A stretch of 64,000 nucleotides of DNA from Candidatus Aphodoplasma sp. (GCA_045626925.1 JAZUQZ010000003.1:18526-82525), one strand, 5' to 3'. Shown: positions 35,253-62,232, numbered from the stretch's first letter. Program-made: numbers and translations. Notes: generated by a model from the sequence alone, not told the origin.

Positions 35253-35298
35253 TTAGTTGAATATGATAGTGTTTTATAAAGTAGGCGGCATATAAAAT

Positions 35299-35907
35299 AC
35301 GGTGGCGCAGTATTCTAGTCAGTTCTATCTATTCCCAAGACGGGCCTAAAAATCCGTTTAAGGGCATATCGATGAAGTTTCTGGTGCTTGCTTTGAACGC
35401 CCAGTTCGGGGTTGGTGCTGGAAGTTAAGGTTTCGGGGCGGTCCGCAATGGCATGTGGGTGCCGAACCCTGTTACCGTGGAGACCTATACTTGTGGTTGC
35501 CAATGGATGTGGCAGAAGTCACATCTAAGTAGCTACGACTTAGGATAAAACCTGCATATCGGTGCTTTTTGTGCTGGGTGTAGAGTAGCCTGCCTTGAGT
35601 GGGAAAAGTCGGGATAACGGACAGACAGATGCGTGTTGGCCAATATGCGTTTGTTATTGCTGTTTGAAATTCGTTCTGCAAAAGAGGCTAAGAATAGATG
35701 TGACTGTAGAGGAAACCTCCTAGACTGTTGCTTCGCTGGCTTGCAAGGGATTGAAATACGGACTAAGTGGCAATCAGGTCATATATATGGCAACATATGT
35801 ATAAGGTGCTTTAAAGGGAAACCGCCGTTTTGGCGACAATTCGGCAGCACTTTGGGAAAACCTACCTGACCTAAAGCCGTAAAATTTACTTTGTGGGTTG
35901 CCACCGT
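35299..35907 (+). ncRNA. ole: OLE (ornate, large, extremophilic) RNA
   Basis: A ~609-nt stretch with no SD-led ORF, visibly G+C-richer than the AT-rich flanks. A closing helix pairs ACGGTGGC (35299-35306) with GCCACCGT (35900-35907). Several local hairpins are present, e.g. CTAAGT/ACTTAG at 35525-35543. The stretch is followed by a small multi-TM protein, then dxs and tlyA, which is the conserved OLE locus order. Confidence 0.8.
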
Positions 35908-35951
35908 AAGTTATATGCTGCTTACATATAGTTTTTGGAGTTGATTTTAAA

Positions 35952-36557
35952 TTGGGAAAGCGTCAAAACCTAAAGGTAAAGGCTGCAGGACAAAATATAA
36001 AGGTTAGTAATAAATGGACATTATTTGTAACAGCGCTGGCATTTGTTCTTACGGTTGCGATGAGTGTAATTTCGACAGGAGCGGAAGGGCTTGGGCTTTT
36101 TAGTGCCATTTGTGTGCTGCTTTTAATCGTAATCCTTGGCATTTTATTTGATATAATAGGTATGGCTGTATCGACGGCGAGCGAGGAACCATTTCATGCG
36201 ATGGCGGCAAAAAAAATCCATGGTGCAAAGGAAAGCGTGACAATTATTCGCAGTGCCCAACAGATTTCAAGCGTATGTAACGATGTAATAGGTGATATAG
36301 CGGGTATTATAAGTGGTGCAATGACAACGGCAATTGTTGTTGCTATATGTTCAAATACAAAGCAGAATGCTACACTTTTAAACCTTGTTTTTGCCGGCGT
36401 TGTCGCAGCACTTATGATTGGCGGCAAAGCTGCGGGCAAGGGCATAGCTATGAAAAACAATAACACTATTGTGTTTATAATAGGCAAGCTTGTTTATGTA
36501 TTTAAAAAGCTATTTTTTATTAAAGCTAAAACAAAGAAAAACAAAAGACAGGTGTAA
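35952..36557 (+). CDS. oapA: OLE-associated membrane protein OapA-like (small multi-TM protein)
   Basis: ~200 aa with about four hydrophobic helices and a basic C-terminal tail. Located immediately 3' of the OLE-like RNA and 5' of dxs. TTG start. Confidence 0.7.
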   Translation: MGKRQNLKVKAAGQNIKVSNKWTLFVTALAFVLTVAMSVISTGAEGLGLFSAICVLLLIVILGILFDIIGMAVSTASEEPFHAMAAKKIHGAKESVTIIRSAQQISSVCNDVIGDIAGIISGAMTTAIVVAICSNTKQNATLLNLVFAGVVAALMIGGKAAGKGIAMKNNNTIVFIIGKLVYVFKKLFFIKAKTKKNKRQV

Positions 36558-40374: not shown

Positions 40375-41361
40375 TTATAAAGGCATATAATATGTAATCA
40401 TAGGCACCGGATGTGCAAATCCTGTTCTTTCGTATGCTCTTCTTGCAGGAGCATGACCGTCATCAAGGCCTGTATGAACTCTTGCATACTGACAGCCTTT
40501 TTTCAGTAATTCACCCTTTAAGAAGCCGTACATTCTCGATGCAATTCTTAAGCCTCTTGAGCTTAAGGATACACCGTTATAACCGAATATACCAAGTTTT
40601 CCGTCCTTTTCGTATCTCAGAGAACAAAAACCGTGAATTTCACCATTCAGTATTGCAACATAAAAATCTGCTGCTTTAAATGATTTTAAAAGAGACTCTT
40701 TAAAAACTTTTTTCCAGTCAGGCTTAACAAGATAATAAAGTTCTTCGCCCAGACAATCTTTATATGCAGCGTGAATTGCCTCCCAGGAAGCATATGCAAT
40801 TTCCAGAACCTTGTCAGTGTGTTCTTCTTTCATCGGTATGATTATAAGGTCGCCAGGATTTTCTTCTTTATATGTTTCTTCAAGCTTCATATAGTATTCA
40901 ACCTGAGGCAATCCTCTTGAAAAACCAAGCTTTTCATATGCTTTTCTTGCAGGAGCGTGACCGTCATCAAGGCCGGTTGAAACTTGTGCCGCAACACATT
41001 TCTTTTCTTTAAAAAGATTTAGAACTGTATTGTTTAATTTTCCTGCAATCCCCAAACCTCTTGCATCAGGGGATACTGCGTTATTAAGGATTTCACCGAT
41101 TTGGTTTTTTTCATCTATGTTGTAAGTTGTAAATCCCATAACTTTATTGTCGCAAAGAGCAATAAAGCCTTTTCCTGCGTTAAGGAAATTATGTACAGCC
41201 TGTTTTTTTGCTTCCTGCCAGTTTTCGTATAAAAAATTATATATTTCTTCCCCTAAGATTTCCTTGTCGACTTCTCTTATAGGAATCCATGCTTTTGCCG
41301 CAATTTCAGCAGCCGCTTCTATGTAATCACTGTGTGGTGCAACAATTTTTATTTCTTTCAT
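40375..41361 (-). CDS. Tandem-domain GNAT N-acetyltransferase
   Basis: Two internally duplicated GNAT halves. Each ends in (V)xTGLDDGHAPAR(K/R)AYE(K/R)xGF and contains (A/S)RGLGIA-type acetyl-CoA loops. Confidence 0.8.
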   Translation of the reverse strand: MKEIKIVAPHSDYIEAAAEIAAKAWIPIREVDKEILGEEIYNFLYENWQEAKKQAVHNFLNAGKGFIALCDNKVMGFTTYNIDEKNQIGEILNNAVSPDARGLGIAGKLNNTVLNLFKEKKCVAAQVSTGLDDGHAPARKAYEKLGFSRGLPQVEYYMKLEETYKEENPGDLIIIPMKEEHTDKVLEIAYASWEAIHAAYKDCLGEELYYLVKPDWKKVFKESLLKSFKAADFYVAILNGEIHGFCSLRYEKDGKLGIFGYNGVSLSSRGLRIASRMYGFLKGELLKKGCQYARVHTGLDDGHAPARRAYERTGFAHPVPMITYYMPL

Positions 41362-41570: not shown

Positions 41571-42551
41571 TTATTCCCACTCGATGGTTGCCGGAGCTTT
41601 TGGGCTAAGGTCATAAAGCACACGACATACACCGCCAACTTCGTTTAAAATTCTGTCCGCAATTTTCTTTAAAATTGCCCAGTCAATTTCCGGCACAGTA
41701 GCGCTCATAGCGTCAACAGTATTGACCGCACGGATAATTACAGGCCAATCAAATACGCGCTTTCCGTCGCGCACACCTGTCGAACGAAAATCAGGCACAA
41801 CAGTAAAGAATTGCCAAACCTTGTCCGTAAGACCTGCTATATCAAACTCTTCGCGCAAAATTGCATCCGATTCACGAAGTGCCTCCAAACGCTCGCGAGT
41901 AATTGCCCCAAGGCAACGCACCCCAAGACCTGGTCCCGGGAATGGCTGACGGTCGACCATTTCGACCGGCAAACCCAACGCCTTGCCGACTACTCTTACT
42001 TCGTCTTTGTATAAAAGCTTTACCGGTTCAACAAGTTCAAACTGCATATCTTCCGGCAAACCGCCGACATTGTGATGTGCTTTTACGCCGTCACTTTCAA
42101 GTATGTCGGGATAAATCGTGCCTTGTGCAAGAAAAGATATCCCCTCAAGTTTGCTTGCTTCTTCGTCGAATACTTTTATAAATTCTCCGCCTATAATTTT
42201 GCGTTTTGTTTCAGGCTCTTCAACATCTTTTAAAAGCTCTAAAAATCGGTCTGTTGCATCGATATAAATAAGATTTGCATCAAGCTTGTTTCTAAAAACT
42301 TCTACAACATTTTCACTTTCGCCTTTGCGCATCAAGCCGTGGTTTACATGCACACAAACGAGCTGTTTTCCAATTGCTTTAATCAAAAGAGCAGCAACAA
42401 CAGACGAATCGACGCCACCCGATAGGGCCAAAAGCACCTTTTTGTCGCCGACCTGGTCACGAACAATTTTGACCTGCTCATCAATAAACTGATTTGCAAG
42501 TGCTTCTGTGGTAATGCGTTGCATACTTTCTGGACGGATATTTGAATTCAT
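41571..42551 (-). CDS. guaA: GMP synthase ATP-pyrophosphatase/dimerisation subunit only (no glutamine amidotransferase domain)
   Basis: PP-loop SGGVDSSV near residue 45. Canonical GuaA C-terminus ...PATIEWE. Only 326 aa. The upstream neighbour is ddh, 31 nt away, leaving no room for a GATase domain. Confidence 0.85.
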   Translation of the reverse strand: MNSNIRPESMQRITTEALANQFIDEQVKIVRDQVGDKKVLLALSGGVDSSVVAALLIKAIGKQLVCVHVNHGLMRKGESENVVEVFRNKLDANLIYIDATDRFLELLKDVEEPETKRKIIGGEFIKVFDEEASKLEGISFLAQGTIYPDILESDGVKAHHNVGGLPEDMQFELVEPVKLLYKDEVRVVGKALGLPVEMVDRQPFPGPGLGVRCLGAITRERLEALRESDAILREEFDIAGLTDKVWQFFTVVPDFRSTGVRDGKRVFDWPVIIRAVNTVDAMSATVPEIDWAILKKIADRILNEVGGVCRVLYDLSPKAPATIEWE

Positions 42552-42582: not shown

Positions 42583-43560
42583 TTATAATAAATTTTTTCT
42601 AAGTGTATCGGCATCATCGGGATGCATATATGCAGGAGCAATATCAAAAATCGTTTTGGCACCGTATGACTTATCCAAATACAAACGATAGGCTGCCCTT
42701 GCATATGCAACAAGCACGCTTGATGTGAACTCTGGATTTGAATCAAGAGTAAGATTAAACTCAATCAAATGCTTGTTTTCGCCTGTTTTTCCACTTCTCA
42801 TTACGCTACCGCCATGCGGAATGCCGGCGTGCTCACGCACAAGCTCTTCCTCGCTTATAAAATGCACAGTCGTATCATAATCAGCAAAATAATTTGGCAT
42901 CTCTTTGATAGTTTTTTCAATAAGCGCCTTATCAGCGTTATCATAAGCAACAACAAAACACTCTCGTGTGTGTTTTTGCCTTGTTGAAAGCTCGGGATTC
43001 TCGCCATTGCGCACGCTGTTGAGTGATGCTTCAACAGGAATTGTGTATTGACGGGCATCCTTTACGCCGTCGATGCGTCTTATTGCATCTGAATGTCCCT
43101 GGCTTACGCCTTTGCCCCAAAAGGTATAGGCACGACCGTTTGGAAGAATTGCCTCACCCATAAGACGATTGAGCGAAAACAATCCGGGGTCCCAACCGAT
43201 AGAAATTATGCTGACTTTTCTTCCTTCTTTACTTGCTTTGTCAACATTTTCAAAATGCTCGGGTATTTTTGCGTGTGTATCAAAGCTATCCACAACATTA
43301 AAATAACGAGCAAGCTCGGGTGTTTGTTGTGGCAAATCCTTTGCACTGCCACCACACAATATTATCACATCGATTTTATCTTGCATTGAAATTGCATCCT
43401 GCATCGAATATACAGGCACACCGGTAATAGTTTTAAGCGTATCGGGCGCGCGTCTTGTAAAAACGCCCACAAGCTCCATATCCTTTGATTGTGATATAGC
43501 AAGCTCTGTCCCTTTGCCAAGGTTTCCATATCCGGCGATTGCAACCCTGATAGTATTCAT
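42583..43560 (-). CDS. ddh: meso-Diaminopimelate D-dehydrogenase
   Basis: N-terminal IRVAIAGYGNLGKG Rossmann motif, ~325 aa, Ddh-like body (WDPGLFS, GVSQGHSDA). Start at ATG 43560 after AAGGAG. Confidence 0.85.
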   Translation of the reverse strand: MNTIRVAIAGYGNLGKGTELAISQSKDMELVGVFTRRAPDTLKTITGVPVYSMQDAISMQDKIDVIILCGGSAKDLPQQTPELARYFNVVDSFDTHAKIPEHFENVDKASKEGRKVSIISIGWDPGLFSLNRLMGEAILPNGRAYTFWGKGVSQGHSDAIRRIDGVKDARQYTIPVEASLNSVRNGENPELSTRQKHTRECFVVAYDNADKALIEKTIKEMPNYFADYDTTVHFISEEELVREHAGIPHGGSVMRSGKTGENKHLIEFNLTLDSNPEFTSSVLVAYARAAYRLYLDKSYGAKTIFDIAPAYMHPDDADTLRKNLL

Positions 43561-43701: not shown

Positions 43702-43730
43702 TTGTAATTGCGTCGGAGTTGTGGTATAAT
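43702..43730 (+). promoter_or_regulatory. Promoter of the murT-gatD-hisH-hisF operon
   Basis: TTGTAA (43702-43707), 17-nt spacer, extended -10 TGgTATAAT (43722-43730). Confidence 0.65.
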
Positions 43731-43804
43731 TTATGATAATTGTTGAGTAATATCGCCCAGTGTTGTTTTGGCGATAAAAGCTATTGTGAAATGAGGAATG
43801 ACAA

Positions 43805-45169
43805 ATGAACAGAATAAAATTTGTTTTATCTGTTGTCGTGTCAAAAATATTATATTTTGCGTGTAAAATGCTTGGTTCGCGTGCGTCTACGGCACCCGGA
43901 AAATATGCGCGCAAAATTTGTCCGGACATAATAAGCATACTTTCAAAGAAGATAAAAAAACAAATTATTGTTGTTTGTGGAACAAACGGCAAAACAACTA
44001 CAAATAACCTTATAAACACTACACTTTTGCGTGCGGGCTATAAGACGGTATGCAACAATGTCGGAGCAAATATGTTAGATGGTGTTGCAGCGGCTTTTTG
44101 CAAGAGCGCGGGCTTTTTTGGCACGCTTAATGCAGATTATGCATGTCTTGAGGTAGATGAGGCAAATTTAAAGCTATTATTTAAACAGATGAGTCCATCA
44201 ATCATAGTGGTGACAAATCTTTTCCGCGACCAGCTTGACAGATATGGCGAGGTCGATACAACATCAAAGCTTTTAAAAACGGCATTTGATTTGGCACCTG
44301 ATGCAAAACTTATATTAAATGCAGATGACCCGACGACATCGGCTTTTGGCGATGGGAGAGAGGCAATCTATTATTCCATAGATGGCAAGGTCGATATGCT
44401 TTCGTGCAACGAAATGCGTGATGGAGCGGTTTGTCAAAAATGTGGGGAGCCACTTGTTTATGAATATTATCTTTATGGTCGGCTTGGTCGTTATAAATGT
44501 CAAAAATGTGGTGACGAGAATAAGACGGCAACATATAAAGCAAGTGGCATAGCTGTAAAAGACGGGATACTTCATTTTGATATTACAAGAGGCGACTTTG
44601 CCGCCCATGCAGAATCGGAGGTTACGGGTCTTTACAATGTATATAATATGCTTATGGCATATGCGGCTGCAGACATAGTTGGAATTGATAACAAGTCGGT
44701 TTTATCTGTTTTGTGCTCGCAAAAACCGGAGCCGGGCCGTATGAGCCGTTTTGAGATAAATTCAAAAACTATCTATCTTTTATTATCGAAAAATCCAATT
44801 GGCTTTAACCAATCTGTGAGCACTGTTATAAATGACAACAGAGAAAAAAATGTTCTTCTTGGGCTAAATGACCTGCCACAAGATGGCGAGGATATATCGT
44901 GGATTTGGGATGTTGATTTTGAAACACTTTTAAAGGGAGATGCAAAACATTATTATATTGTAGGCGAAAGACGATTTGATATGTATTTGCGCCTAAAATA
45001 TAGTGGCTATGATGAATCAAAAATAAAGATTTTTGATTCAATTGATGATGCTATTGAAGCTATGCTGTCTGATGAGCAGACAATAAACTATCTTCTTGTG
45101 AATTATTCGGTTATGTATCCTATGTATCTAAAGCTTAAAGCGCTTGAGGGAGGGAAAACAAATGAGTAA
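43805..45169 (+). CDS. murT: Lipid II isoglutaminyl synthase, Mur-ligase-like subunit MurT
   Basis: Mur ligase P-loop GTNGKTTT. Cys4 ribbon CQKCG...CQKCG. C-terminal DUF1727-type NDLPQDGEDISWIWDVDFE. Confidence 0.85.
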   Translation: MNRIKFVLSVVVSKILYFACKMLGSRASTAPGKYARKICPDIISILSKKIKKQIIVVCGTNGKTTTNNLINTTLLRAGYKTVCNNVGANMLDGVAAAFCKSAGFFGTLNADYACLEVDEANLKLLFKQMSPSIIVVTNLFRDQLDRYGEVDTTSKLLKTAFDLAPDAKLILNADDPTTSAFGDGREAIYYSIDGKVDMLSCNEMRDGAVCQKCGEPLVYEYYLYGRLGRYKCQKCGDENKTATYKASGIAVKDGILHFDITRGDFAAHAESEVTGLYNVYNMLMAYAAADIVGIDNKSVLSVLCSQKPEPGRMSRFEINSKTIYLLLSKNPIGFNQSVSTVINDNREKNVLLGLNDLPQDGEDISWIWDVDFETLLKGDAKHYYIVGERRFDMYLRLKYSGYDESKIKIFDSIDDAIEAMLSDEQTINYLLVNYSVMYPMYLKLKALEGGKTNE

Positions 45170-45908
45170 AAAAACAATCACACTCTATCATTTATATCCG
45201 GACCTCTTAAATTTACATGCAGATTTTGGTAATGTTGCAGTAATAAAAATGCGATGCGAAAAGCGTGGTATAGAGTTTATATTAAAAACGCTTGCCATAG
45301 ATGAAAGTGCTGACTTTTGTGATGCAGATATTATTATGCTTGGCGGTGGCTCGCCAAAGGAGCTGCGCAAAGTAAGTGAGCAAAAAAGAGTTATTGCCGA
45401 TGCGCTTAAAAATTATGTCCAAAGCGATGGTATTGTGTTTGCAAGCTGTGAAGGATATCAGCTTTTGGGCAATTTTTATGAGTCTGATGGGGAGAAAATT
45501 GAAGGATTTGGAATACTTGATATTGAAACTGCTTACTCTGAAGAAAGGCTTATGTCGAATGCTATAATAGAAACAACGCTTGGCGATAGAAGTGTTATAA
45601 TAACAGGCTTTGAAAACCATACGGGAAGAACGAACATCAAAAATCATAAGCCGTTTGGCCGTGTGTTATCGGGATATGGAAATGACGGCAGCAGGGAATT
45701 TGAGGGAGTTATTTATAAAAATACAATAGCGACATATCTTTGCGGCCCACTTTTACCCCAAAATCCTGAATTTGCTGATTATTTAATTGAAACGGCGCTT
45801 AAAAGAAAGGGCGCTATGGGAGAACAAGGGCTTGATATACTTGATGATACAATTGAAATGCGTGCGAAAAACTTTATGATTGAGCGCGAAAATAAACAAA
45901 AGAATTGA
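45162..45908 (+). CDS. gatD: Lipid II isoglutaminyl synthase glutaminase subunit GatD (CobB/CobQ-like GATase)
   Basis: Catalytic Cys context SCEGYQLLG. Overlaps the murT stop (ATGAGTAA). ~248 aa. Confidence 0.85.
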   Translation: MSKKTITLYHLYPDLLNLHADFGNVAVIKMRCEKRGIEFILKTLAIDESADFCDADIIMLGGGSPKELRKVSEQKRVIADALKNYVQSDGIVFASCEGYQLLGNFYESDGEKIEGFGILDIETAYSEERLMSNAIIETTLGDRSVIITGFENHTGRTNIKNHKPFGRVLSGYGNDGSREFEGVIYKNTIATYLCGPLLPQNPEFADYLIETALKRKGAMGEQGLDILDDTIEMRAKNFMIERENKQKN

Positions 45909-45926
45909 TCCGGGAGGGCAGACAAT

Positions 45927-46541
45927 ATGGTTGGTGTAATTGATTATAAAGCGGGCAACGGTCCAAGTGTAAAAAGTGCGCTTTCACATATGGGGATTGA
46001 GGTTGTGCTTACATGCGATAAAGAGATTTTAAAACAATGTTCACATATTATTCTTCCGGGGGTGGGCTCTGCGGGCGCGACAATGGAGTCACTACGCGAG
46101 CTTGACCTTGTTGATATGTTATATGAGCATGCGATTGTAAAAAAGAAATATTTTATGGGGATTTGTGTAGGTTTACAGGTACTTTTTGAAAAAAGCGAAG
46201 AGGACAATGCGACTTGTCTTGGGTGGTTTTGTGGCGATGTTGTCCGCTTTGATGAAAAGGATGTGCGCGTGCCACAGATTGGATGGAACAGTGCAAAATT
46301 TACATCCGATGATGCAATTTTAAAAGGTATATCAGACGAGGAATATTTTTATTTTGTAAACTCGTATTATGTACGCCCAAAGGATGAAGATATTGCGTTT
46401 GCATATACGAATTATGGCGAAAAATTTTGCTCTATGATACATAAAGACAATATATATGCATCACAGTTTCACCTTGAAAAAAGCGGCGAGATAGGCTTAA
46501 AGCTTTTGAAAAATTTTGCACTTTTGGAGGCGGAGAAGTAA
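45927..46541 (+). CDS. hisH: HisH-type class I glutamine amidotransferase
   Basis: PGVGSAG, catalytic GICVGLQ Cys, PQIGWN, YFVNSY, QFHLEKS (His/Glu of the triad). Confidence 0.85.
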   Translation: MVGVIDYKAGNGPSVKSALSHMGIEVVLTCDKEILKQCSHIILPGVGSAGATMESLRELDLVDMLYEHAIVKKKYFMGICVGLQVLFEKSEEDNATCLGWFCGDVVRFDEKDVRVPQIGWNSAKFTSDDAILKGISDEEYFYFVNSYYVRPKDEDIAFAYTNYGEKFCSMIHKDNIYASQFHLEKSGEIGLKLLKNFALLEAEK

Positions 46542-46542
46542 T

Positions 46543-47337
46543 ATGCTTACAAAAAGACTTATTGCGTGCTTTGACATACGCGACAAAATGGTAACAAAGG
46601 CACACAAATTTCAAAACAATATTGACATCGATAAAGCAGAGGTAATTGCAAAAAGAATTTATGCTGACCAAATTGATGAGATTATATTTTTTGATATATT
46701 GGCAAGTGCGGAAAAACGAAAAATTGATATCGATACAGTAAAAATGGTGGCTGAAAATGTTTTTGTGCCGTTTACGGTAGGCGGTGGCATACGAAATCTT
46801 GATGATATGTATGAGGTTTTAAAGGCGGGTGCAGAAAAAATCAGCATTGACTCTATGGCGGTACGCAATCCACAGATTATAAATGATGGAGCGCGTGCTT
46901 TTGGCAGACAGTGTATCGTGCTTAGTATGCAGGTAAAAAAGGTCGAAAAAAGCGAAAAAATACCAAGCGGATATGAAATTGCGATAGATGGTGCAAGAGT
47001 GTTTACAGGTATGGACGCAGTAGAGTGGGCAAAGCGTGGCGAAGCACTTGGTGCGGGCGAAATTTGTGTAAATTCAATTGACAATGACGGCACTCATCAG
47101 GGCTATGATATTGAAATCACAAAGATGATTTCCGATGCGGTAAATATTCCCGTAATTGCATCCGGAGGAGCAGGCAAACCGGAACATTTGCTTGATGTGT
47201 TTTCACAGACGGGCGCATCTGCAGGCATAATTTCGTCTATGCTGTATTCGCCAAAAATGGAGCGAAATTACAGTGTACGCGAGATAAAAGACTATCTTAT
47301 TAAAAACGGTCAACCGATAAGACCATATATACTTTAA
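46543..47337 (+). CDS. hisF: HisF-like (beta/alpha)8 barrel cyclase subunit homologue with Asp130 replaced by Gln
   Basis: Aligns without gaps to T. maritima HisF over residues 1-130 (KRLIACFDI, PFTVGGGI, later ASGGAG). Asp11 is conserved. The codon at 46930-46932 is CAG (Gln) where HisF has the catalytic Asp130. Confidence 0.8.
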   Translation: MLTKRLIACFDIRDKMVTKAHKFQNNIDIDKAEVIAKRIYADQIDEIIFFDILASAEKRKIDIDTVKMVAENVFVPFTVGGGIRNLDDMYEVLKAGAEKISIDSMAVRNPQIINDGARAFGRQCIVLSMQVKKVEKSEKIPSGYEIAIDGARVFTGMDAVEWAKRGEALGAGEICVNSIDNDGTHQGYDIEITKMISDAVNIPVIASGGAGKPEHLLDVFSQTGASAGIISSMLYSPKMERNYSVREIKDYLIKNGQPIRPYIL

Positions 47338-47343
47338 AATTAG

Positions 47344-47372
47344 AATGTGCAAAGTTTCTTTGCACATTTTTT
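47344..47372 (+). terminator. Intrinsic terminator after hisF
   Basis: AATGTGCAAAG (47344-47354) / CTTTGCACATT (47358-47368) plus TTTT. Confidence 0.8.
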
Positions 47373-47381
47373 ATGAGAAAA

Positions 47382-47408
47382 AAACGGTGGACAATTTGTC
47401 CACCGTTT
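47382..47408. terminator. Second, bidirectional terminator (serves PFOR on the minus strand)
   Basis: AAACGGTGGACAA / TTGTCCACCGTTT palindrome, with an A7 run upstream and a T-rich run downstream. Confidence 0.8.
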
Positions 47409-55430: not shown

Positions 55431-56978
55431 TTATCTTTTTAAATACTTTGCAAGCAGAGCTATATCGTTTTTAGTTATACATTTTAATAAAAGGATAAAA
55501 CTTGTGTATATAACGCCCATTACAAGCAGGCCCATTAGAAGTGATAAAGCAGTGCCGAAACTATACAAAATGCCTTTTATGGCGTATGCACAAAACATTG
55601 CAGGCACTATTGCACAAAGTGGTTTTGCAACAATGGACGCTATATCAAGACGCATATTTGTTACAGTTAAAAGTTGTTTTATATTAAGACAAGAAGTAAA
55701 CAAGTTGCTCAAAATCATAATTGCCAAAAACGCATAAATACCAAATTGTGGCAGGAAAATAGTTATAAGCACTATGCGTATAGCCGAATTATAGACATTA
55801 TAGCGAAGGGCGGCCACCTGTTGATTAAGCCCGCTCAAAATGCCCGCAATAATGCTTTCTGTATACATAAAGGGTATTATCGGTGCAAGTGATAAGATAT
55901 AGAGCCCGACATCGTTGCTTTTGTACACAAGCGCACCTATTTCATAAGCATACATGCTAAAAAATGCACCAATAAAAACAGAACTTAGTGATGTAATCAA
56001 AAGTGTGTAGCTTATAACATTTTTTAGCGCTTTGTTCTGCTTGCTGGCGCTATACTCTGTTATTTCCGGTATGAGCAAAGCACTCAATGCACCAAGAAAA
56101 GATGCAGGGAAAAACAATAAGGGCAATGCCATACCCTTAAGAGCGCCAAATTGTGAAAGAGACATCTCGCGTGAGTGGTTATAACGCGTAAGCGCATCAG
56201 GCACCATGACATTTTCTATTGTATGAAGTATAGTGTTTAAATATGAACTAAAAGCTATCGGAACAAATATGTATACAAGCCTGCGCATTATATGATGTGT
56301 GGGGGCGGTGCCGCCTTTGACAAGACGCTTGTCACGAAGATAGCCAACAAAGATGTACACACATGCACCAAGCTCTGAAAGAGCATTGCCTAAAACGACT
56401 GCTGCACATGCTTTTTCAAGGTTGTCATGTTCGACTCTGCTAAGGCAAAGCAATACAACAAAAATTCGTACAAGCTGTTCGAAAAGCTGGGAATTTGATG
56501 GGGTGGATGCCTTGCGGCGCGCCATAAAATACCCCTTCAGGCATGATGAAACTGCCATAAAAGGCAGGCCAAAGGATAAAATCTTGAGTGATAGTGCGAC
56601 GCGTGTGTCGCACAACCATTTTTGTGACACAAAGTCGGCACAAAAAAATAATAACGCATATGCACAAAGGCCAAGAAGAAGGCTTAATAAAAGTGAGCGG
56701 AAAAGAATTTTGTTTACTGCTTGTTTTCCGCCTGTAACGACATCCTCTGTTACAAGTCTTGTCACGGCGATGTTTATGCCTGATGACGCGATAGCACTTG
56801 CAAAGGTGTATATCGAAAAAATGAGCTGATGAAGGCCCATACCTTCGTCGCCTATCGTGTTTGAAACATAAATTCTTAAAAAAATGCCTGCTGCACGAAG
56901 AATAATAGATGTTGCAGTAAGTATCAAAGCATTTTTAATAAAAAGCCGTTTTTTCAAGGTTACACATCCGTTTCTCAC
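55431..56978 (-). CDS. spoVB: Stage V sporulation protein B-like MOP-superfamily flippase
   Basis: ~14 TM segments, MurJ/Wzx-like. Adjacent to spmAB. Start uncertain: no clear SD at ATG 56978, and TTG 56957 is possible. Confidence 0.65.
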   Translation of the reverse strand: MRNGCVTLKKRLFIKNALILTATSIILRAAGIFLRIYVSNTIGDEGMGLHQLIFSIYTFASAIASSGINIAVTRLVTEDVVTGGKQAVNKILFRSLLLSLLLGLCAYALLFFCADFVSQKWLCDTRVALSLKILSFGLPFMAVSSCLKGYFMARRKASTPSNSQLFEQLVRIFVVLLCLSRVEHDNLEKACAAVVLGNALSELGACVYIFVGYLRDKRLVKGGTAPTHHIMRRLVYIFVPIAFSSYLNTILHTIENVMVPDALTRYNHSREMSLSQFGALKGMALPLLFFPASFLGALSALLIPEITEYSASKQNKALKNVISYTLLITSLSSVFIGAFFSMYAYEIGALVYKSNDVGLYILSLAPIIPFMYTESIIAGILSGLNQQVAALRYNVYNSAIRIVLITIFLPQFGIYAFLAIMILSNLFTSCLNIKQLLTVTNMRLDIASIVAKPLCAIVPAMFCAYAIKGILYSFGTALSLLMGLLVMGVIYTSFILLLKCITKNDIALLAKYLKR

Positions 56979-57051
56979 ATTATTTAGTTATATATATTCT
57001 TGAGATGTAATAAAATATTTCAAAAATAAAAACAAAACTCTTAATTAGGTC

Positions 57052-57080
57052 TTTACATATTAAAAATGTTGTTATATAAT
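57052..57080 (+). promoter_or_regulatory. Promoter P1 upstream of the polysaccharide genes
   Basis: TTTACA (57052-57057), 17-nt spacer, TATAAT (57075-57080). Confidence 0.55.
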
Positions 57081-57151
57081 ACATAAGGAGAAATTATGTG
57101 TGGATGCGTTCTGTTTTGTATAAATTAAACAAATATGGCATATAAGATTAT

Positions 57152-57180
57152 TTGACACAGAAGTGTTTTTGTGCTATATT
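57152..57180 (+). promoter_or_regulatory. Promoter P2 upstream of the Wzz-like gene
   Basis: TTGACA (57152-57157), 17-nt spacer, extended -10 TGcTATATT (57172-57180). Confidence 0.6.
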
Positions 57181-57238
57181 CATAATTAGGATGATAGGCG
57201 TGTTTTCCACTGAGAAATAAAAGCAGGAGGCAAAATAT

Positions 57239-57928
57239 ATGAGTGAAAACCTGAGTTTAATAGATATAATAAAAATAATTGCAAAATGGTGGTGGCTTGT
57301 AGCTATTGTCTCCATTTTGTGCGCAAGCGGAATGTATGTGTATTCTGAATATTTTGAAGACGATATATATGTTTCAAAGGGTAGCTTTTACATACGCTCA
57401 GCTACTACAAATATAGAAAACATCACTATCGCAACACTTAATGCAAACACTCGTTTTAGTGAAACATATATTGAACTTGCAAAGAGTGATAGTGTGCTTG
57501 AAAAGGTATCGCAGGAACTTGTAAACAAGGGATATCAGCCTGCTTCAGCTGTTGCACTTCGCAGTGTTTTGAGATTTTCTGTACTTAACGAAACAGAAGT
57601 ATTAGAAGTAAGCGCCGAAAATCGTGACCCCCAAAAAGCGCAGGATATAACTAATGCAGTTTTAAAAGTTGCACCGCAAGAAATTAAAAACATTGTAAAA
57701 GCCGGCGGGGCGGAAGTGGTGGATGAGGCAAAGCTTCCAACACAACCAACATATCCAAATGTTTTAAAGAAAACACTTGTTGGATTTTTTGTGGGGTTTG
57801 TTATAGGATGTGTCATCATATTCATACTAGAATTTTTTGATTTAAGAATTAAACCCGATAATAATCTTGAAGAAATGTATGGGATTCCGGTAATTGGTAA
57901 TATTCCGGAAATAAAAAATAAGCTATAA
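57239..57928 (+). CDS. Polysaccharide chain-length determinant / tyrosine-kinase modulator (Wzz, CpsC/EpsA-like)
   Basis: N- and C-terminal TM helices flank an extracytoplasmic domain. Immediately precedes the BY-kinase. Confidence 0.85.
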   Translation: MSENLSLIDIIKIIAKWWWLVAIVSILCASGMYVYSEYFEDDIYVSKGSFYIRSATTNIENITIATLNANTRFSETYIELAKSDSVLEKVSQELVNKGYQPASAVALRSVLRFSVLNETEVLEVSAENRDPQKAQDITNAVLKVAPQEIKNIVKAGGAEVVDEAKLPTQPTYPNVLKKTLVGFFVGFVIGCVIIFILEFFDLRIKPDNNLEEMYGIPVIGNIPEIKNKL

Positions 57929-57967
57929 ATCAGGGCTTATTTGATTTTTTATAAGGAGTATGTACAT

Positions 57968-58996
57968 ATGTTTGATTTACTAAAAGGTAGCAGCAAAAAG
58001 AAAATCAGAAAATATAATTATGAGTCAAGTGCAGCAAACATACTTCACGAGGATTCGGAATTTGTCGTAAATGAAGCGTATAAAGCTATGAGAACGAATA
58101 TAATGTTTTCATTCCATGATGATGATTCATGTAAGACTATTGTGTGTACGAGTGCTATGCCGGGCGAGGGTAAGACAACGACATGTATAAATATGGCTAT
58201 TTCGTTTGCTCAAACAGGTAGCCGTGTACTACTTGTTGATGCTGACCTTCGAAAACCTAAAATAGACAGATATCTTGATATAGAATCCGGACAGGGAGTA
58301 TCTGATTATTTAGGAGGCTTTGTAAAAGACATTGATAGCATCATAGTGCATCTTGAAGACAGGGGTATTGATTGCGTCGTTGCAGGTAGTATACCACCAA
58401 ATCCTTCGGAGCTTTTAGGCTCTGAAACTATGGAAAAGTTCATTAAAACTATGGAAGGAAAATATGATTATATATTTGTAGATGCGCCACCTGTAAATAT
58501 TGTTACAGATGCTATTGTACTTGCAAAATTTTGTTCAGGTATAGTGGTTGTTGTAAAAGAGAACAATACAACGCACGATATGCTTAAAAATGCAATTGGC
58601 GCAATACAATTTGCAAATATTAAGATATATGGCTTTATAGTAAACGGAAGTGAAATAAAAAGGCGTGGCAAGTATCGTTATAAGAAAAAGCGGTATGGCT
58701 ACGGCAGTTATGGCTATGGCTACGGCTATGGTTACGGCTATGGCGAGGGTTATGGAAGCAATCCGGATAGAAGGAAAAAAGCAGAGGAAATTGCAGAAAA
58801 GGATGAAAATAAAAAAGCAGAGAAAGAGGAAAATCCAAATCTTGAGGATGTGCTTGGAGATACACCATTAGACAATGACACAAGAGAAAAAACAGAAGAA
58901 ATTGTTGAGGAAGTTGTTGAAAAAAAGACAGAAGATGAAATGCAAGAAGTAGAGATTGCACCGGAAAATTCAGAAGATACAATAGAAGACAAATAG
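57968..58996 (+). CDS. Bacterial tyrosine (BY) kinase, CpsD/EpsB-like, with long acidic C-terminal extension
   Basis: Walker A GEGKTT, A' VLLVDADLRKP, B IFVDAPP. Tyr cluster YRYKKKRYGYGSYGYGYGYGYGYGEGYG, followed by ~80 aa of E/K/D-rich tail. Confidence 0.85.
   Translation: MFDLLKGSSKKKIRKYNYESSAANILHEDSEFVVNEAYKAMRTNIMFSFHDDDSCKTIVCTSAMPGEGKTTTCINMAISFAQTGSRVLLVDADLRKPKIDRYLDIESGQGVSDYLGGFVKDIDSIIVHLEDRGIDCVVAGSIPPNPSELLGSETMEKFIKTMEGKYDYIFVDAPPVNIVTDAIVLAKFCSGIVVVVKENNTTHDMLKNAIGAIQFANIKIYGFIVNGSEIKRRGKYRYKKKRYGYGSYGYGYGYGYGYGEGYGSNPDRRKKAEEIAEKDENKKAEKEENPNLEDVLGDTPLDNDTREKTEEIVEEVVEKKTEDEMQEVEIAPENSEDTIEDK
58673..58756 (+). repeat. Tandem (TAT/TAC-GGN)n repeat encoding the YG tyrosine cluster
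   Basis: tatggctacggc / tatggctatggc / tacggctatggt / tacggctatggc units are seen directly in the sequence. Confidence 0.8.
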
Positions 58997-59052
58997 TGGA
59001 TTTGTTATAAAAGAATATATCGAGTATCTTTTTTTGAAAGGAAAGATAGCAA

Positions 59053-60951
59053 TTGAAAATAAGGGGAAAATTATTTAAACTCTTATGGGGAGTAGCAGAT
59101 ATCTTAATAGTTGCAGCCGCATATTTACTTGCAATGTATTTTATAAAAGACAAGCTTCCGTCAAATGCAGAAGAATTGTTAAATTTTGAATATACTGTTG
59201 CAAGTGCCGCAGGCGTGTATGTAATTGCATTGTGCACGGTGGGTGGTTATAGCACATTGTGGAGATATGCAGGCCTAAGGGAATATTTAATGTGTGCTGG
59301 CGCGTGCTTTGTATCCTTTGTGATATTATCTGTTGCATCGCTATTTGCAAGGAATATTTTGTATGCACTTGGTTTTCATGTTTTTGCATTTGCAATCATT
59401 GTGCTTGGATGTATATCTGTTCGCATATTACCGCGTATCAACCTTCATATTTCAAGAAAAAGAGAAGATGCAAAAAGTGGAAACAAAATAGCAAAGAGAG
59501 TTAATTTGCTTGTTATCGGAGCAGGAGCTGCTGCAAAAAAGGTTATAGATGATATTCGTATAACAGAGCCAAAGTATAGGATTATCGGTGTGATAGATGA
59601 TGACAAATCAAAAATAGGCAAAAAGGTATTTGGTACAAGAGTATTGGGTACAAGAGATGATATTATAACGATTTGCAGAGAAAATAAAGTAAGGGAAATA
59701 TTGCTTGCGATTCCTTCGATAAGTTCTGCGGACAAAAAGATTATCCTTGATATATGCAATAAAACCTCGTGCAAGGTTCGTATGTTGCCGAGCCTTTCGG
59801 AAATGATTAACACAGATAATTTCAACAAAGTTGTAAGAGATATACAAATCGAAGATTTGCTTGAGCGCGAACCGATTTCACTTGATACGACAAAAATTTC
59901 GGATTATATACAAGATAAGGTGATTTTGGTAACAGGCGGCGGTGGTTCGATTGGGTCAGAGCTTTGCAGACAAATTGCACGCTTTAAACCTAAAAAGCTT
60001 TATATACTTGATGTATATGAAAATAATGCATATGATTTAGAAAATGAACTTAAGACAAAATATCCTGATTTGCCGTTTGAAATAATTATTGCAAGCGTGC
60101 GCGATATGGATAGAATGGATAGCATATTTGAAAAGTTCCGTCCGGAGATTGTCTTTCATGCGGCGGCCCATAAGCATGTTCCTCTTATGGAGATAAACCC
60201 GTCAGAAGCTATAAAAAATAATGTTCTTGGAACATTTAAGACTGCGATTTGTGCACATAAATATCGTGCAAAAAGATTTGTTTTGATTTCTACTGACAAA
60301 GCGGTAAACCCAACAAATATTATGGGCGCGACAAAGCGTGTTGCTGAGATGATTATTCAGTCGATGGACCGCATGAGCAAGACAGAGTTTGTGGCGGTTC
60401 GTTTTGGAAATGTTTTGGGTTCAAATGGTTCTGTTGTTCCTTTATTTAAAAAGCAAATCGAGAATGGCGGGCCGGTTACACTTACACACAAAGAGATAAC
60501 GAGATTTTTTATGACTATTCCGGAAGCATCGTTGCTTGTGCTTGAGGCGGCATCGTTTGCAAAAGGCGGAGAAATATTTGTTCTTGATATGGGCGAGCCT
60601 GTAAAAATATATGATTTGGCAGTTAATTTAATAAGATTGTCTGGGCTTGAACCTGATGTTGACATAAAGATTGAAACGATAGGACTTCGAGATGGAGAAA
60701 AGCTTTATGAGGAGCTTTTGCTTGCAGAGGAGGGTCTTCGAGAAACCTTTAATAAGAAAATATTTGTTGCAGCACCGATGAGTTTTGATTGGAACGAGTT
60801 AAATGCGCGTCTTGAGTCGCTCTATGATGCGGCGGCAAATCTTGATGAAGATGAAATAAAAAGCATATTAAAACAGATTGTTCCGACATATCATAGCCCT
60901 GACATGGAACAAAATGACGACGATGAATGTGATGAGGAAACGGATATATAA
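59053..60951 (+). CDS. Membrane-anchored polysaccharide biosynthesis protein CapD/EpsC-like (UDP-sugar 4,6-dehydratase family)
   Basis: Four N-terminal TM helices. Two Rossmann segments (VIGAGAAAK; VTGGGGSIGSEL). SDR-like core. TTG start. Confidence 0.85.
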   Translation: MKIRGKLFKLLWGVADILIVAAAYLLAMYFIKDKLPSNAEELLNFEYTVASAAGVYVIALCTVGGYSTLWRYAGLREYLMCAGACFVSFVILSVASLFARNILYALGFHVFAFAIIVLGCISVRILPRINLHISRKREDAKSGNKIAKRVNLLVIGAGAAAKKVIDDIRITEPKYRIIGVIDDDKSKIGKKVFGTRVLGTRDDIITICRENKVREILLAIPSISSADKKIILDICNKTSCKVRMLPSLSEMINTDNFNKVVRDIQIEDLLEREPISLDTTKISDYIQDKVILVTGGGGSIGSELCRQIARFKPKKLYILDVYENNAYDLENELKTKYPDLPFEIIIASVRDMDRMDSIFEKFRPEIVFHAAAHKHVPLMEINPSEAIKNNVLGTFKTAICAHKYRAKRFVLISTDKAVNPTNIMGATKRVAEMIIQSMDRMSKTEFVAVRFGNVLGSNGSVVPLFKKQIENGGPVTLTHKEITRFFMTIPEASLLVLEAASFAKGGEIFVLDMGEPVKIYDLAVNLIRLSGLEPDVDIKIETIGLRDGEKLYEELLLAEEGLRETFNKKIFVAAPMSFDWNELNARLESLYDAAANLDEDEIKSILKQIVPTYHSPDMEQNDDDECDEETDI

Positions 60952-61002
60952 CAAATATGAAAAACTTTAGATAAAAAAATTTAAAAAAATTTTAAAAAAC
61001 TG

Positions 61003-61031
61003 TTGACTTTGAAAAAATTAAGTGGTATGAT
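61003..61031 (+). promoter_or_regulatory. Near-consensus promoter of the 37-aa peptide gene
   Basis: TTGACT (61003-61008), 17-nt spacer, extended -10 TGgTATGAT (61023-61031). Confidence 0.7.
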
Positions 61032-61064
61032 GTAATTAATGAGTATTGGAAGGAGTGTATTATT

Positions 61065-61178
61065 ATGAAAAAGACATACGAGAGACCAGAACTTGAAGAG
61101 GTTCTTTTTGACACACAGAACATAATGGCAGCTAGCCGTATTGAGGAAGGCGACGAAGATAGTTGGGAAAACATTTAA
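61065..61178 (+). CDS. 37-aa acidic peptide with RiPP-leader-like YxxPxL motif (absent from the ORF track)
   Basis: Hand translation: MKKTYERPELEEVLFDTQNIMAASRIEEGDEDSWENI. SD GGAAGGAG 8 nt upstream. Has its own strong promoter and is followed by a hairpin. Confidence 0.6.
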   Translation: MKKTYERPELEEVLFDTQNIMAASRIEEGDEDSWENI

Positions 61179-61213
61179 TCGCTTGATACTTGATAAATGT
61201 TTATAATCAAAAG

Positions 61214-61243
61214 ATAGGCAGACGGATGTTTCCGTTTGCCTAT
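61214..61243 (+). terminator. Hairpin between the peptide gene and the SLH gene (weak/leaky terminator)
   Basis: ATAGGCAGACGG (61214-61225) / CCGTTTGCCTAT (61232-61243), 12 bp with one G-U pair. Only a short T tail (TTTAA). Confidence 0.5.
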
Positions 61244-61272
61244 TTAACTCTAAAGAAAAGGAAGGTAATATT

Positions 61273-62232
61273 ATGAAAAAGCTACAAATGAGCAGGATTG
61301 TTTCTTTAGTATTGGCACTTTGCATGATGTTTTCTGTAATGCAGATTACGGTGTTTGCTGATGAAGTGACATTTAGTGATATGCCTGATAACTGGGCAAC
61401 AGCTGCATTAAAGAAGGCTGTTGAGAATAATCTTCTTGCTGGTTCTGATGGAAAGATTATGCCTGATGCTAGTCTTACTCGCGCACAAATGGCGACTATT
61501 ATGTCGCGCGCATTTGGTGCAACAGAGCTAGCGGACATTTCATCGTTTAGCGATGTAAAAGAAGATGCTTGGTATTATGAATATATGTCAAAAGCGGTTG
61601 AAATGGGAGTTTTTAAGGGCGATGGTGCAAGTCTGAACCCTGAAAATAATATTACTCGCGAAGAGGCCTTTACAGTATTGGCGCGTGCGTTTGCACTTGA
61701 AAATGCAGGTGCAGATGTTCTTGTTGATTTTGTTGATAAGGATAGCGTTTCAAGCTGGGCAGTTCCTACGGTTGCTGCTATTGTTAAAAACAATTATGCA
61801 AAGGGCTCTGACGGATATCTTAATCCAAACAGCAACATTACCCGTGCAGAATTTGCAGTGCTTATGAATAATATTGTAAAAGTATATATTACTTCGCCTG
61901 GTGTATGCAATTCAGTTGAAAAGGGAAATGTTGTTGTTCGTACGAATGGCGTTACATTTTCTGGGGTTAAAATTGATGGTGATTTGATTGTTGGACCATC
62001 AATAACTGCTAAAGGCGTTATATTGAAGAATTCTTCTGTAACGGGACGCATCGTTGGTGATGATGAGCAAAATAAGATTGAAAAAATAACAACCGAAGTC
62101 GGTGGCGGTTCGGGCGGTGGTCCAAGTGGCGGCTCAAACAACGGCTCGGGGAATAACACCGGTACAGACGATACAAGTGATGAACATTTTGGTTTGGATG
62201 GCGGAATAGAAGATGGCGGAGAATTTGAATAA
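61273..62232 (+). CDS. Secreted S-layer-homology (3x SLH) domain cell-wall protein with Gly-rich acidic tail
   Basis: Signal peptide ending VFA-DE. Three SLH repeats (TRAQMATIMSRAF, TREEAFTVLARAF, TRAEFAVLMNNIV). C-terminal GGGSGGGPSGGSNNGSGNN. Confidence 0.85.
   Translation: MKKLQMSRIVSLVLALCMMFSVMQITVFADEVTFSDMPDNWATAALKKAVENNLLAGSDGKIMPDASLTRAQMATIMSRAFGATELADISSFSDVKEDAWYYEYMSKAVEMGVFKGDGASLNPENNITREEAFTVLARAFALENAGADVLVDFVDKDSVSSWAVPTVAAIVKNNYAKGSDGYLNPNSNITRAEFAVLMNNIVKVYITSPGVCNSVEKGNVVVRTNGVTFSGVKIDGDLIVGPSITAKGVILKNSSVTGRIVGDDEQNKIEKITTEVGGGSGGGPSGGSNNGSGNNTGTDDTSDEHFGLDGGIEDGGEFE

Follow-up and report, generated by a model that had tools for sequence, protein, structure and literature searches.

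We analysed a 64,000-nucleotide stretch of the genome of Candidatus Aphodoplasma sp. (GCA_045626925.1, JAZUQZ010000003.1:18526-82525; hereafter the window, with positions counted from its first letter), in which a promoter-like site and four tightly packed genes (43702-47337) comprise two glutamine-amidotransferase systems. The first gene, murT (43805-45169, + strand, 454 amino acids (aa)), encodes the Mur-ligase-type subunit of lipid II isoglutaminyl synthase, and is followed by a gatD homologue (45162-45908, +, 248 aa) that starts with the ATG at 45162, overlaps murT by 8 nucleotides (nt), keeps Cys94 and Arg128 and lacks the catalytic His189. After an 18-nt gap comes hisH (45927-46541, +, 204 aa), encoding a class I glutaminase subunit, and after a further 1-nt gap hisF (46543-47337, +, 264 aa), encoding a TIM barrel with the substitutions N103D, D130Q and A224S, which belongs to what we term the DQ clade. 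GGAGG-like ribosome-binding sites precede all four genes. The open reading frame (ORF) list, the sequence and consensus scans reproduced all coordinates, the overlap and the gaps of a preliminary description of the locus, which had read the HisH/HisF-like pair as a possible ammonia supply for a second amidation of the peptidoglycan stem peptide or a wall polymer.

Family scans agreed with the identities proposed earlier for MurT, GatD, HisH and the divergent neighbour Ddh, and confirmed a HisF-like barrel. MurT contained the domains Mur_ligase_M (PF08245, 54 bits) and MurT_C (PF08353, DUF1727, 116 bits), had MurT equivalogs as its best NCBIfam matches and aligned with Staphylococcus aureus MurT (7Q8E, 6GS2) at E=1e-66. 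GatD matched GATase_3 (PF07685, 115 bits), with the GatD equivalog as its best match, and aligned with S. aureus GatD (5N9M) at E=4e-46. HisH scored 224 bits on TIGR01855, above the equivalog cutoff of 105. The divergent gene ddh (42583-43560, -), encoding meso-diaminopimelate (mDAP) dehydrogenase, scored 446 bits on TIGR01921, carried a DAPDH_C domain and was found at the same place in loci L006, L007, L011, L063 and L172 (homologous loci are cited by such numbers throughout).

The best promoter-like site of the region (43702-43730, +; TTGTAA, 17-nt spacer, TG-TATAAT; 10/12 consensus matches) lies within the 205-nt divergent intergenic region between ddh and murT. It had been called a strong promoter; the region contained 23 promoter-like sites versus 19.6 ± 3.8 in shuffled sequence. 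Because such sites are not enriched, a promoter at this position is plausible by consensus match only. Another consensus match (45853-45880, +; TTGAAA, 16-nt spacer, TATGAT; 10/12) lies 47 nt upstream of hisH, still within the 3' end of gatD, and could allow expression of hisH-hisF independently of murT-gatD. The double terminator described after hisF corresponds to two GC-rich hairpins (47344-47368 and 47382-47408) between the convergent hisF and pyruvate:ferredoxin oxidoreductase (PFOR) genes, the second of which scored as a terminator on either strand. An Rfam scan of the window detected no riboswitch or T-box near the operon.

A survey of relatives, as the preliminary description had suggested, showed that the murT-gatD-hisH-hisF order recurs in L006-L013, L063, L171 and L172, and the arrangement is kept in at least 12 related species-level genomes. 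Identities to the window proteins were 54-68% for MurT, 35-57% for GatD, 66-84% for HisH and 83-96% for HisF. The nearest genomes were those of uncultured gut Clostridia ('Candidatus Aphodoplasma sp.', 'Oscillospiraceae bacterium SIG449', UMGS1253 and MGYG-HGUT-04085), and the window proteins were also found on several metagenome contigs. The trees of murT, gatD, hisH and hisF were mutually congruent; the four genes have therefore been passed on vertically, as one block, within a single lineage. Linkage to murT was absent for HisF homologues of at most 80% identity, and one relative, L090, carried murT-gatD with no hisH-hisF after gatD. A scan of JGI metagenomes with HisF yielded no close relative of the murT-linked clade, only further DQ-type and canonical loci. 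Within the literature searched, no paper linked MurT/GatD functionally to HisH/HisF, in keeping with the earlier remark that no described module of these four genes was known.

The catalytic site of GatD

Alignment of the window protein with S. aureus GatD placed 'TYLCGP' against 'TYLHGP', so that His189 is replaced by Cys (TGC codon, 45741-45743, +) and the HGP motif is absent; the catalytic Cys94 ('SCEGYQ') and Arg128 ('EERL'), which binds glutamine, are conserved. The same Cys189 occurred in the independent assemblies L001 and L003, and a simple sequencing error is not the cause, because the change from a His to a Cys codon needs two base changes. Among the relatives with the four-gene operon, H189 was replaced by Asn in L006 and by Tyr in L007 and L063; C94, R128 and H189 were all lost in L011; C94 and H189 were lost in L013, with R128 changed to Lys; and L172 combined R128 to Lys with H189 to Tyr. 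GatD was fully intact in L008, L009, L010 and L171, and L012 kept C94 and H189 with R128 changed to Lys. On the congruent gene trees, GatD was inactivated at least twice independently, in the subclades window/L006/L007/L063 and L011/L013/L172. The GTNGKT P-loop, the Glu108 Mg site, the Cys4 zinc ribbon and D349 (GEDISW) of MurT were intact in the window and in 12 relatives.

The ratio of nonsynonymous to synonymous substitution rates (dN/dS) of GatD was 0.146 for a pair of proteins without the catalytic residues (called dead below, by prediction) versus 0.095 for an intact pair, and a value of about 0.15 indicates that purifying selection still acts on the dead GatD. On the dead branch and the intact sister branch, GatD had 29 versus 11 fixed differences and MurT 36 versus 33. 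Among the 120 nearest GatD homologues 108 were intact, and the dead ones came either from this lineage or from a Gly94 clade. Among representatives of clusters at 50% identity (n = 150), 124 were intact and about 17 dead.

The catalytic triad C94-H189-MurT D349 spans both subunits (PMC6113224). S. aureus GatD with C94A, H189A or R128A is a totally inactive glutaminase (Leisico 2018, PMC5871853), and with C94G loses glutamine-dependent and keeps ammonia-dependent lipid II amidation (Muench 2012, PMC3266927). S. aureus MurT alone is inactive, and the MurT/GatD complex uses ammonia at pH 8.5, not at pH 7.5 (PMC3266927). On the basis of the published S. aureus C94 and H189 mutants, the window complex is predicted to be unable to use glutamine. 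By this analogy, the window GatD is most likely glutaminase-dead and would be kept as a structural partner of MurT, which would use ammonia, not glutamine, for the D-iso-glutamate amidation of lipid II.

The pair resembles the MurT/GatD complexes of S. aureus (6GS2/7Q8E), Streptococcus pneumoniae (6FQB) and Mycobacterium tuberculosis in its two overlapping genes, in the MurT domains, P-loop, zinc ribbon and Asp349, and in the CobB/CobQ-type GATase fold, Cys94 and Arg128 of GatD. It differs in Cys189, with relatives that have Asn, Tyr or Ser there and some also without Cys94, and in an operon that runs straight into hisH-hisF. Likewise, the natural Gly94 clade and the non-His residue 189 of the window match the S. 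aureus C94G and H189A laboratory mutants, but these are natural, selected proteins (dN/dS about 0.15) whose activity is predicted. With about 1 in 9 of the nearest GatD cluster representatives lacking the catalytic Cys or His, lipid II amidation may be ammonia-dependent or otherwise supplied in many anaerobes. This matters because work on MurT/GatD as an antibiotic target assumes a conserved catalytic triad.

Two further groups of GatD homologues were seen. The Gly94 clade (P0133, P0135, P0138, P0148, P0149, P0156, P0157, P0160, P0162, P0163 and P0174) carries the same change as the C94G laboratory mutant, and the Gly94 gatD genes of L088 (8001-8723) and L089 (8001-8723) lie in murT-gatD-Mem_trans operons, the last gene encoding an AEC-type permease. 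Homologues 700-900 aa long, whose C-terminal 230 residues form the GatD region (P0247, P0248, P0268, P0277, P0292, P0299, P0301, P0322, P0331, P0349 and P0360), are probably single-chain MurT-GatD fusions.

HisH/HisF and the DQ clade

The HisH triad Cys84/His178/Glu180 (Thermotoga maritima numbering) was intact in the window protein, in 10/10 linked relatives examined (L171 and L172 not included) and in 137/139 sequences overall. HisF aligned with solved HisF structures at E=1e-53 to 1e-64. Its residues R5, D11, K19, E46, D51, G82, K99, E167, D176, G177, G203 and S225 were unchanged; the ammonia gate (R5, E46, K99, E167) and both phosphate-binding sites were thus kept, with the changes T104S and A224S. 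Position 103 is Asp (codon 46849-46851, +) in place of the canonical Asn, and position 130 is Gln (codon 46930-46932, +), so that Asp130 is missing beside a retained D11.

In an alignment with T. maritima HisF, every homologue at least 60% identical to the window HisF had D103/Q130/S224 with the other key residues unchanged, and those of at most 57% identity mostly had the canonical N103/D130/A224; the exceptions with D103/Q130 were L067 and L069 (54%) and L126 (55%). The DQ clade was monophyletic in a neighbour-joining tree, bar the outlier L069, and extended over Clostridia, Cellulomonas, other Actinomycetes and metagenome-assembled genomes labelled Spirochaetota and Alphaproteobacteria. HisF dN/dS was 0.004-0.03, indicating extreme purifying selection. 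The perfect coupling of N103D and D130Q fits a compensated swap, in which Asp103, at the end of strand beta-4, would substitute for the Asp130 lost from the end of the neighbouring beta-5; plausibly, Asp103 takes over the role of Asp130 in DQ HisFs. If so, this clade would provide a natural example in which a catalytic aspartate has relocated to the adjacent beta-strand. Within the literature searched, there was no description of natural N103/D130 variation in HisF.

DQ HisFs 62-77% identical to that of the window were the sole hisF product at seven his-operon loci. L023 carried hisZ-hisG-hisD-hisC-hisB-hisA-hisH-hisF-hisI, each of which scored close to or above its NCBIfam cutoff, and the other six were L022, L026, L047, L098, L099 and L118. 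Six of the seven showed the order hisB-hisA-hisH-hisF-hisI or the visible part of it, and L118 was ordered otherwise. These operon-embedded members stood at two or more separate places in the DQ clade of the neighbour-joining tree. Because hisA precedes hisH in these his operons, L118 excepted, the direct adjacency of hisH and hisF is no sign of a glycan-type paralogue, as the preliminary description had taken it to be. Its statement that the window holds no other his gene was borne out by tblastn with HisZ, HisG, HisD, HisC, HisB, HisA and HisI queries. Canonical hisH-hisF pairs in other phyla (Kiritimatiellia, Verrucomicrobia and others) usually had no other his gene within 10 kb either, and since they are equally alone at the loci examined, isolation from his genes does not mark a special paralogue. 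The window also encodes aroB, a pyr operon, ddh and an ilvE-like aminotransferase gene, which argues against a stripped-down auxotroph.

These results suggest that HisH/HisF most likely serves the organism as its ordinary imidazole glycerol phosphate synthase (IGPS) in histidine biosynthesis, with a HisF of a variant clade. The pair shares with the IGPS of T. maritima (1GPW/1THF) and Thermus thermophilus (1KA9) the HisH Cys-His-Glu triad, the (beta-alpha)8 barrel, the gate residues, D11, K19 and the glycine-rich phosphate sites, and other members of its HisF clade are the sole hisF in complete his operons. It differs in D130Q, N103D and A224S, which always occur together, in two short insertions of HisF (264 versus 253 aa), and in being co-operonic with murT-gatD with no other his gene nearby. 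A large multi-phylum HisF clade that lacks the textbook Asp130 yet serves in his operons would offer a testable case of active-site rewiring in a model enzyme, and its peculiarity would explain the inconsistent labels given by annotation pipelines.

DQ pairs were also seen in other surroundings. In Vallitalea pronyensis (CP058649; L086 9387-20122), the DQ hisH-hisF pair is followed by a gene for a 443-aa protein without a Pfam match, and then by genes for a divergent 237-aa HisA/HisF-like barrel, a DegT-type aminotransferase, three unknown products and a HAD hydrolase. The Cellulomonas DQ pairs had unrelated neighbours (a two-component system, an ABC transporter and a GH9 cellulase).

IGPS releases 5-aminoimidazole-4-carboxamide ribonucleotide (AICAR), a purine intermediate, and guaA adjoined hisH-hisF in many loci with both HisF types in unrelated genomes: L035, L038, L100, L101 and L109 with DQ HisF, and L068, L071, L072, L077, L080, L083, L085, L129, L141, L155 and L160 with canonical HisF. 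This adjacency fits the link of IGPS to purines through AICAR. On the ddh side of murT, full-length guaA was present in L009, L010, L090 and L171; the L171 operon diverges from pyrG-purB-guaA, and the left flank of L090 is identical in make-up. The left flank in the window's subclade consists of ddh and a guaA reduced to its ATP-pyrophosphatase half, which in the window (41571-42551, -, 326 aa) lies directly downstream of ddh and scored 441 bits on the GMP synthase model over positions 192-512 of 512; neither a GATase domain nor a remnant of one was detected in the window. By gene order, the shared transcript would reflect the linkage of hisH-hisF to purine and pyrimidine amidotransferase genes (guaA, purB, pyrG), and the pair was probably placed beside murT-gatD through this linkage and not for cell-wall work. 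In a distant lineage (L176 3-4818; MurT 41% identical), hisZ-hisG-hisA is divergent from murT-gatD, so that a second lineage also has his genes beside murT-gatD; GatD of L176 also has Cys189, and the contig ends 26 nt past gatD.

Some observations on this neighbourhood stand apart. The truncated guaA and the His189-less GatD occur in the same subclade, so that two glutaminase functions are missing in one neighbourhood. The guaA fragment was considered as a conserved third partner of HisH/HisF and rejected, as most guaA neighbours are full-length and also accompany canonical HisF. In L087 (5968-14038), and also in L021, L025 and L027, DQ hisH-hisF recur after a type III glutamine synthetase gene, an ANTAR response regulator gene and an unknown gene and before gatC-gatA-gatB, which places this HisF clade in a nitrogen-regulated setting. 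Because the common theme is glutamine-using and purine-related genes, these arrangements suggest shared regulation or plain synteny, not a shared reaction.

Competing explanations of the operon

The best explanation of the locus as a whole, to which we give a probability of about 0.6, is a variant IGPS and a MurT/pseudo-GatD that share a transcript by gene order, that is, a lineage-specific operon of two biochemically separate glutamine-amidotransferase systems. Several observations weigh against it. HisF lacks Asp130, which with Asp11 is reported to be essential for cyclase activity in T. maritima HisF (PMC5919458), and the IGPS activity of the DQ clade is deduced from genomic context. HisF also scored 283.8 bits on TIGR00735, below the equivalog cutoff of 294.55; the HisFs of his operons, however, reached just 270-282 bits as well, so that the shortfall is a property of the clade. 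Neither the 64-kb window nor the 10-kb flanks of the operon in any of the 12 relatives yielded hisG, hisE, hisI, hisA, hisB, hisC or hisD, and the non-his context in V. pronyensis may represent a second use of the DQ clade. Finally, GatD was inactivated at least twice within a 12-species clade that always has hisH-hisF downstream, which could be meaningful, and ammonia use by S. aureus MurT/GatD was seen solely at pH 8.5, not at 7.5 (PMC3266927). If this ordinary reading is right, two known enzymes are juxtaposed in an operon specific to one lineage, and the idea of a second amidation can be dropped.

That idea, in which a WbuY/WbuZ-like pair channels ammonia to amidation of the mDAP epsilon-carboxylate or of a wall polymer, could draw on ddh and murT in the operon context, on the HisF score below the equivalog cutoff and on a polysaccharide locus (Wzz, a CpsD-like kinase, a CapD/PglF-like dehydratase and an SLH protein) about 10 kb off. 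The window HisF, however, scored 230 bits on WbuZ (TIGR03572, cutoff 299.7) and 190 bits on AglZ/HisF2 (NF038364, cutoff 310), and the canonical HisF of L080 scored 226 and 201 bits on the same models, so that the window scores are at background; the DQ HisFs of his operons had the same WbuZ scores as canonical HisF. The WbuX-type N-acetyl sugar amidotransferase is the third gene of the three-gene set (PMC11340318), but no WbuX-type gene was seen in the window, nor is there an unassigned ORF of suitable size; the only TIGR03573 match among seven neighbourhood proteins was the PP-loop of the guaA fragment (20.7 bits, cutoff 203). Moreover, the operon has no AsnB/LtsA-type mDAP amidotransferase, the same HisF clade serves his operons, and between the operon and the glycan locus lie PFOR, ABC transporter and spore-maturation genes. 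The pair is thus like WbuX/WbuY/WbuZ (WbpG/HisH2/HisF2, AglZ-type) in that a HisH-like and a HisF-like gene adjoin each other near cell-envelope genes and not in a his operon, and unlike it in falling below both cutoffs, in having no WbuX-type PP-loop amidotransferase and in lying outside the glycan locus. Nothing pointed to a second amidation of either mDAP or a wall polymer; the mechanism of the preliminary description is largely unsupported, and we regard it as highly improbable. It is also unlikely that HisH and HisF are orphans, in an organism with no histidine pathway, with another nitrogen or purine role unrelated to MurT. Such a role would fit about 85 of about 92 DQ-type loci without a his gene in the flanks examined, the recurrent neighbours (gatCAB, type III glutamine synthetase with its ANTAR regulator, guaA), the V. 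pronyensis context and the missing Asp130; yet canonical pairs are equally isolated at the loci examined, and his-operon members have identical residues at both phosphate-binding sites, at D11 and K19 and in the ammonia gate. The very low dN/dS of the linked HisFs equals that of the operon-embedded members, which argues for a single shared function, and we know of no alternative substrate.

The remaining alternatives concern the nitrogen supply of MurT. HisH/HisF may have been recruited as the glutaminase or ammonia source for a MurT/pseudo-GatD complex in which GatD is structural only: HisH would hydrolyse glutamine, and the ammonia would either pass to MurT via the HisF barrel or be released nearby as NH3. 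The window GatD without His189 keeps alive this weaker form of the ammonia supply proposed earlier, and catalytic residues were lost at least twice within the hisHF-linked clade with the MurT motifs and the HisH triad strictly kept. In addition, gatD and hisH are closely coupled (the short gap in the window, a 4-nt overlap in L172), L090, with no hisH-hisF after gatD, has an intact GatD, and the second, distant dead-GatD locus (L176) adjoins his genes. Since S. aureus MurT/GatD made no use of ammonium at neutral pH, the ammonia source of a dead-GatD complex is a real question. However, dead GatDs also occurred without hisH-hisF, beside Mem_trans (L088/L089), FemAB-like (L174) or CitMHS (L177) genes or with no co-directional gene (L178), and they make up about 17 of the 150 cluster representatives, so that GatD loss appears to be a general trend of the family that does not need hisH-hisF nearby. 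Five linked species have an intact GatD, and the active-site and channel residues of HisF in the linked species are the same as in his-operon members. We also considered, and rejected, that HisH, HisF or MurT co-evolves with the GatD state: no HisF column tracked it, and seven HisH columns separated dead from intact species (versus 0-2 in naive control partitions), but phylogeny-aware control partitions reached eight, leaving no co-evolution signal. To our knowledge, there is neither a docking surface nor a precedent for contact between HisF and MurT. As dead GatDs are found without hisH-hisF nearby, a role of HisH/HisF as ammonia source for MurT is possible but unsupported, and we consider it unlikely, in its general form and in the detail given; direct use of ammonia by MurT is the simpler alternative. 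If recruitment were true, a histidine-pathway amidotransferase would moonlight as nitrogen donor for peptidoglycan amidation. A still active Cys189 GatD working by a non-standard mechanism, which would make the operon a normal MurT/GatD followed by a normal IGPS, is distinctly less credible: Cys94, Arg128 and MurT D349 are all kept in the window and GatD is under purifying selection, but H189A is totally inactive in S. aureus, and the excess of fixed differences on the dead branch was seen for GatD (29 versus 11) and hardly for MurT (36 versus 33). Sister species have Asn or Tyr at position 189 and others also lack Cys94, a pattern typical of a position no longer under catalytic constraint.

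Other features of the window

A full-length OLE (ornate large extremophilic) RNA lies at 35286-35920 (+; 476 bits, gathering score 50, model positions 1-616), and downstream of it follow a 201-aa ORF without a Pfam match (35952-36557), dxs and an FtsJ/TlyA-like methyltransferase gene. Downstream of the guaA fragment, the gene at 40375-41361 (-) encodes a 328-aa protein with two tandem GNAT acetyltransferase domains that is conserved in L001 and L003. A surface-polysaccharide region at 55431-62232 encodes a Polysacc_synt flippase, Wzz, a CpsD-like P-loop kinase, a 632-aa CapD/PglF-like 4,6-dehydratase and an SLH-domain protein; it lies about 8-10 kb from the operon, with PFOR, ABC transporter, M14 peptidase and two Gate-domain genes in between.

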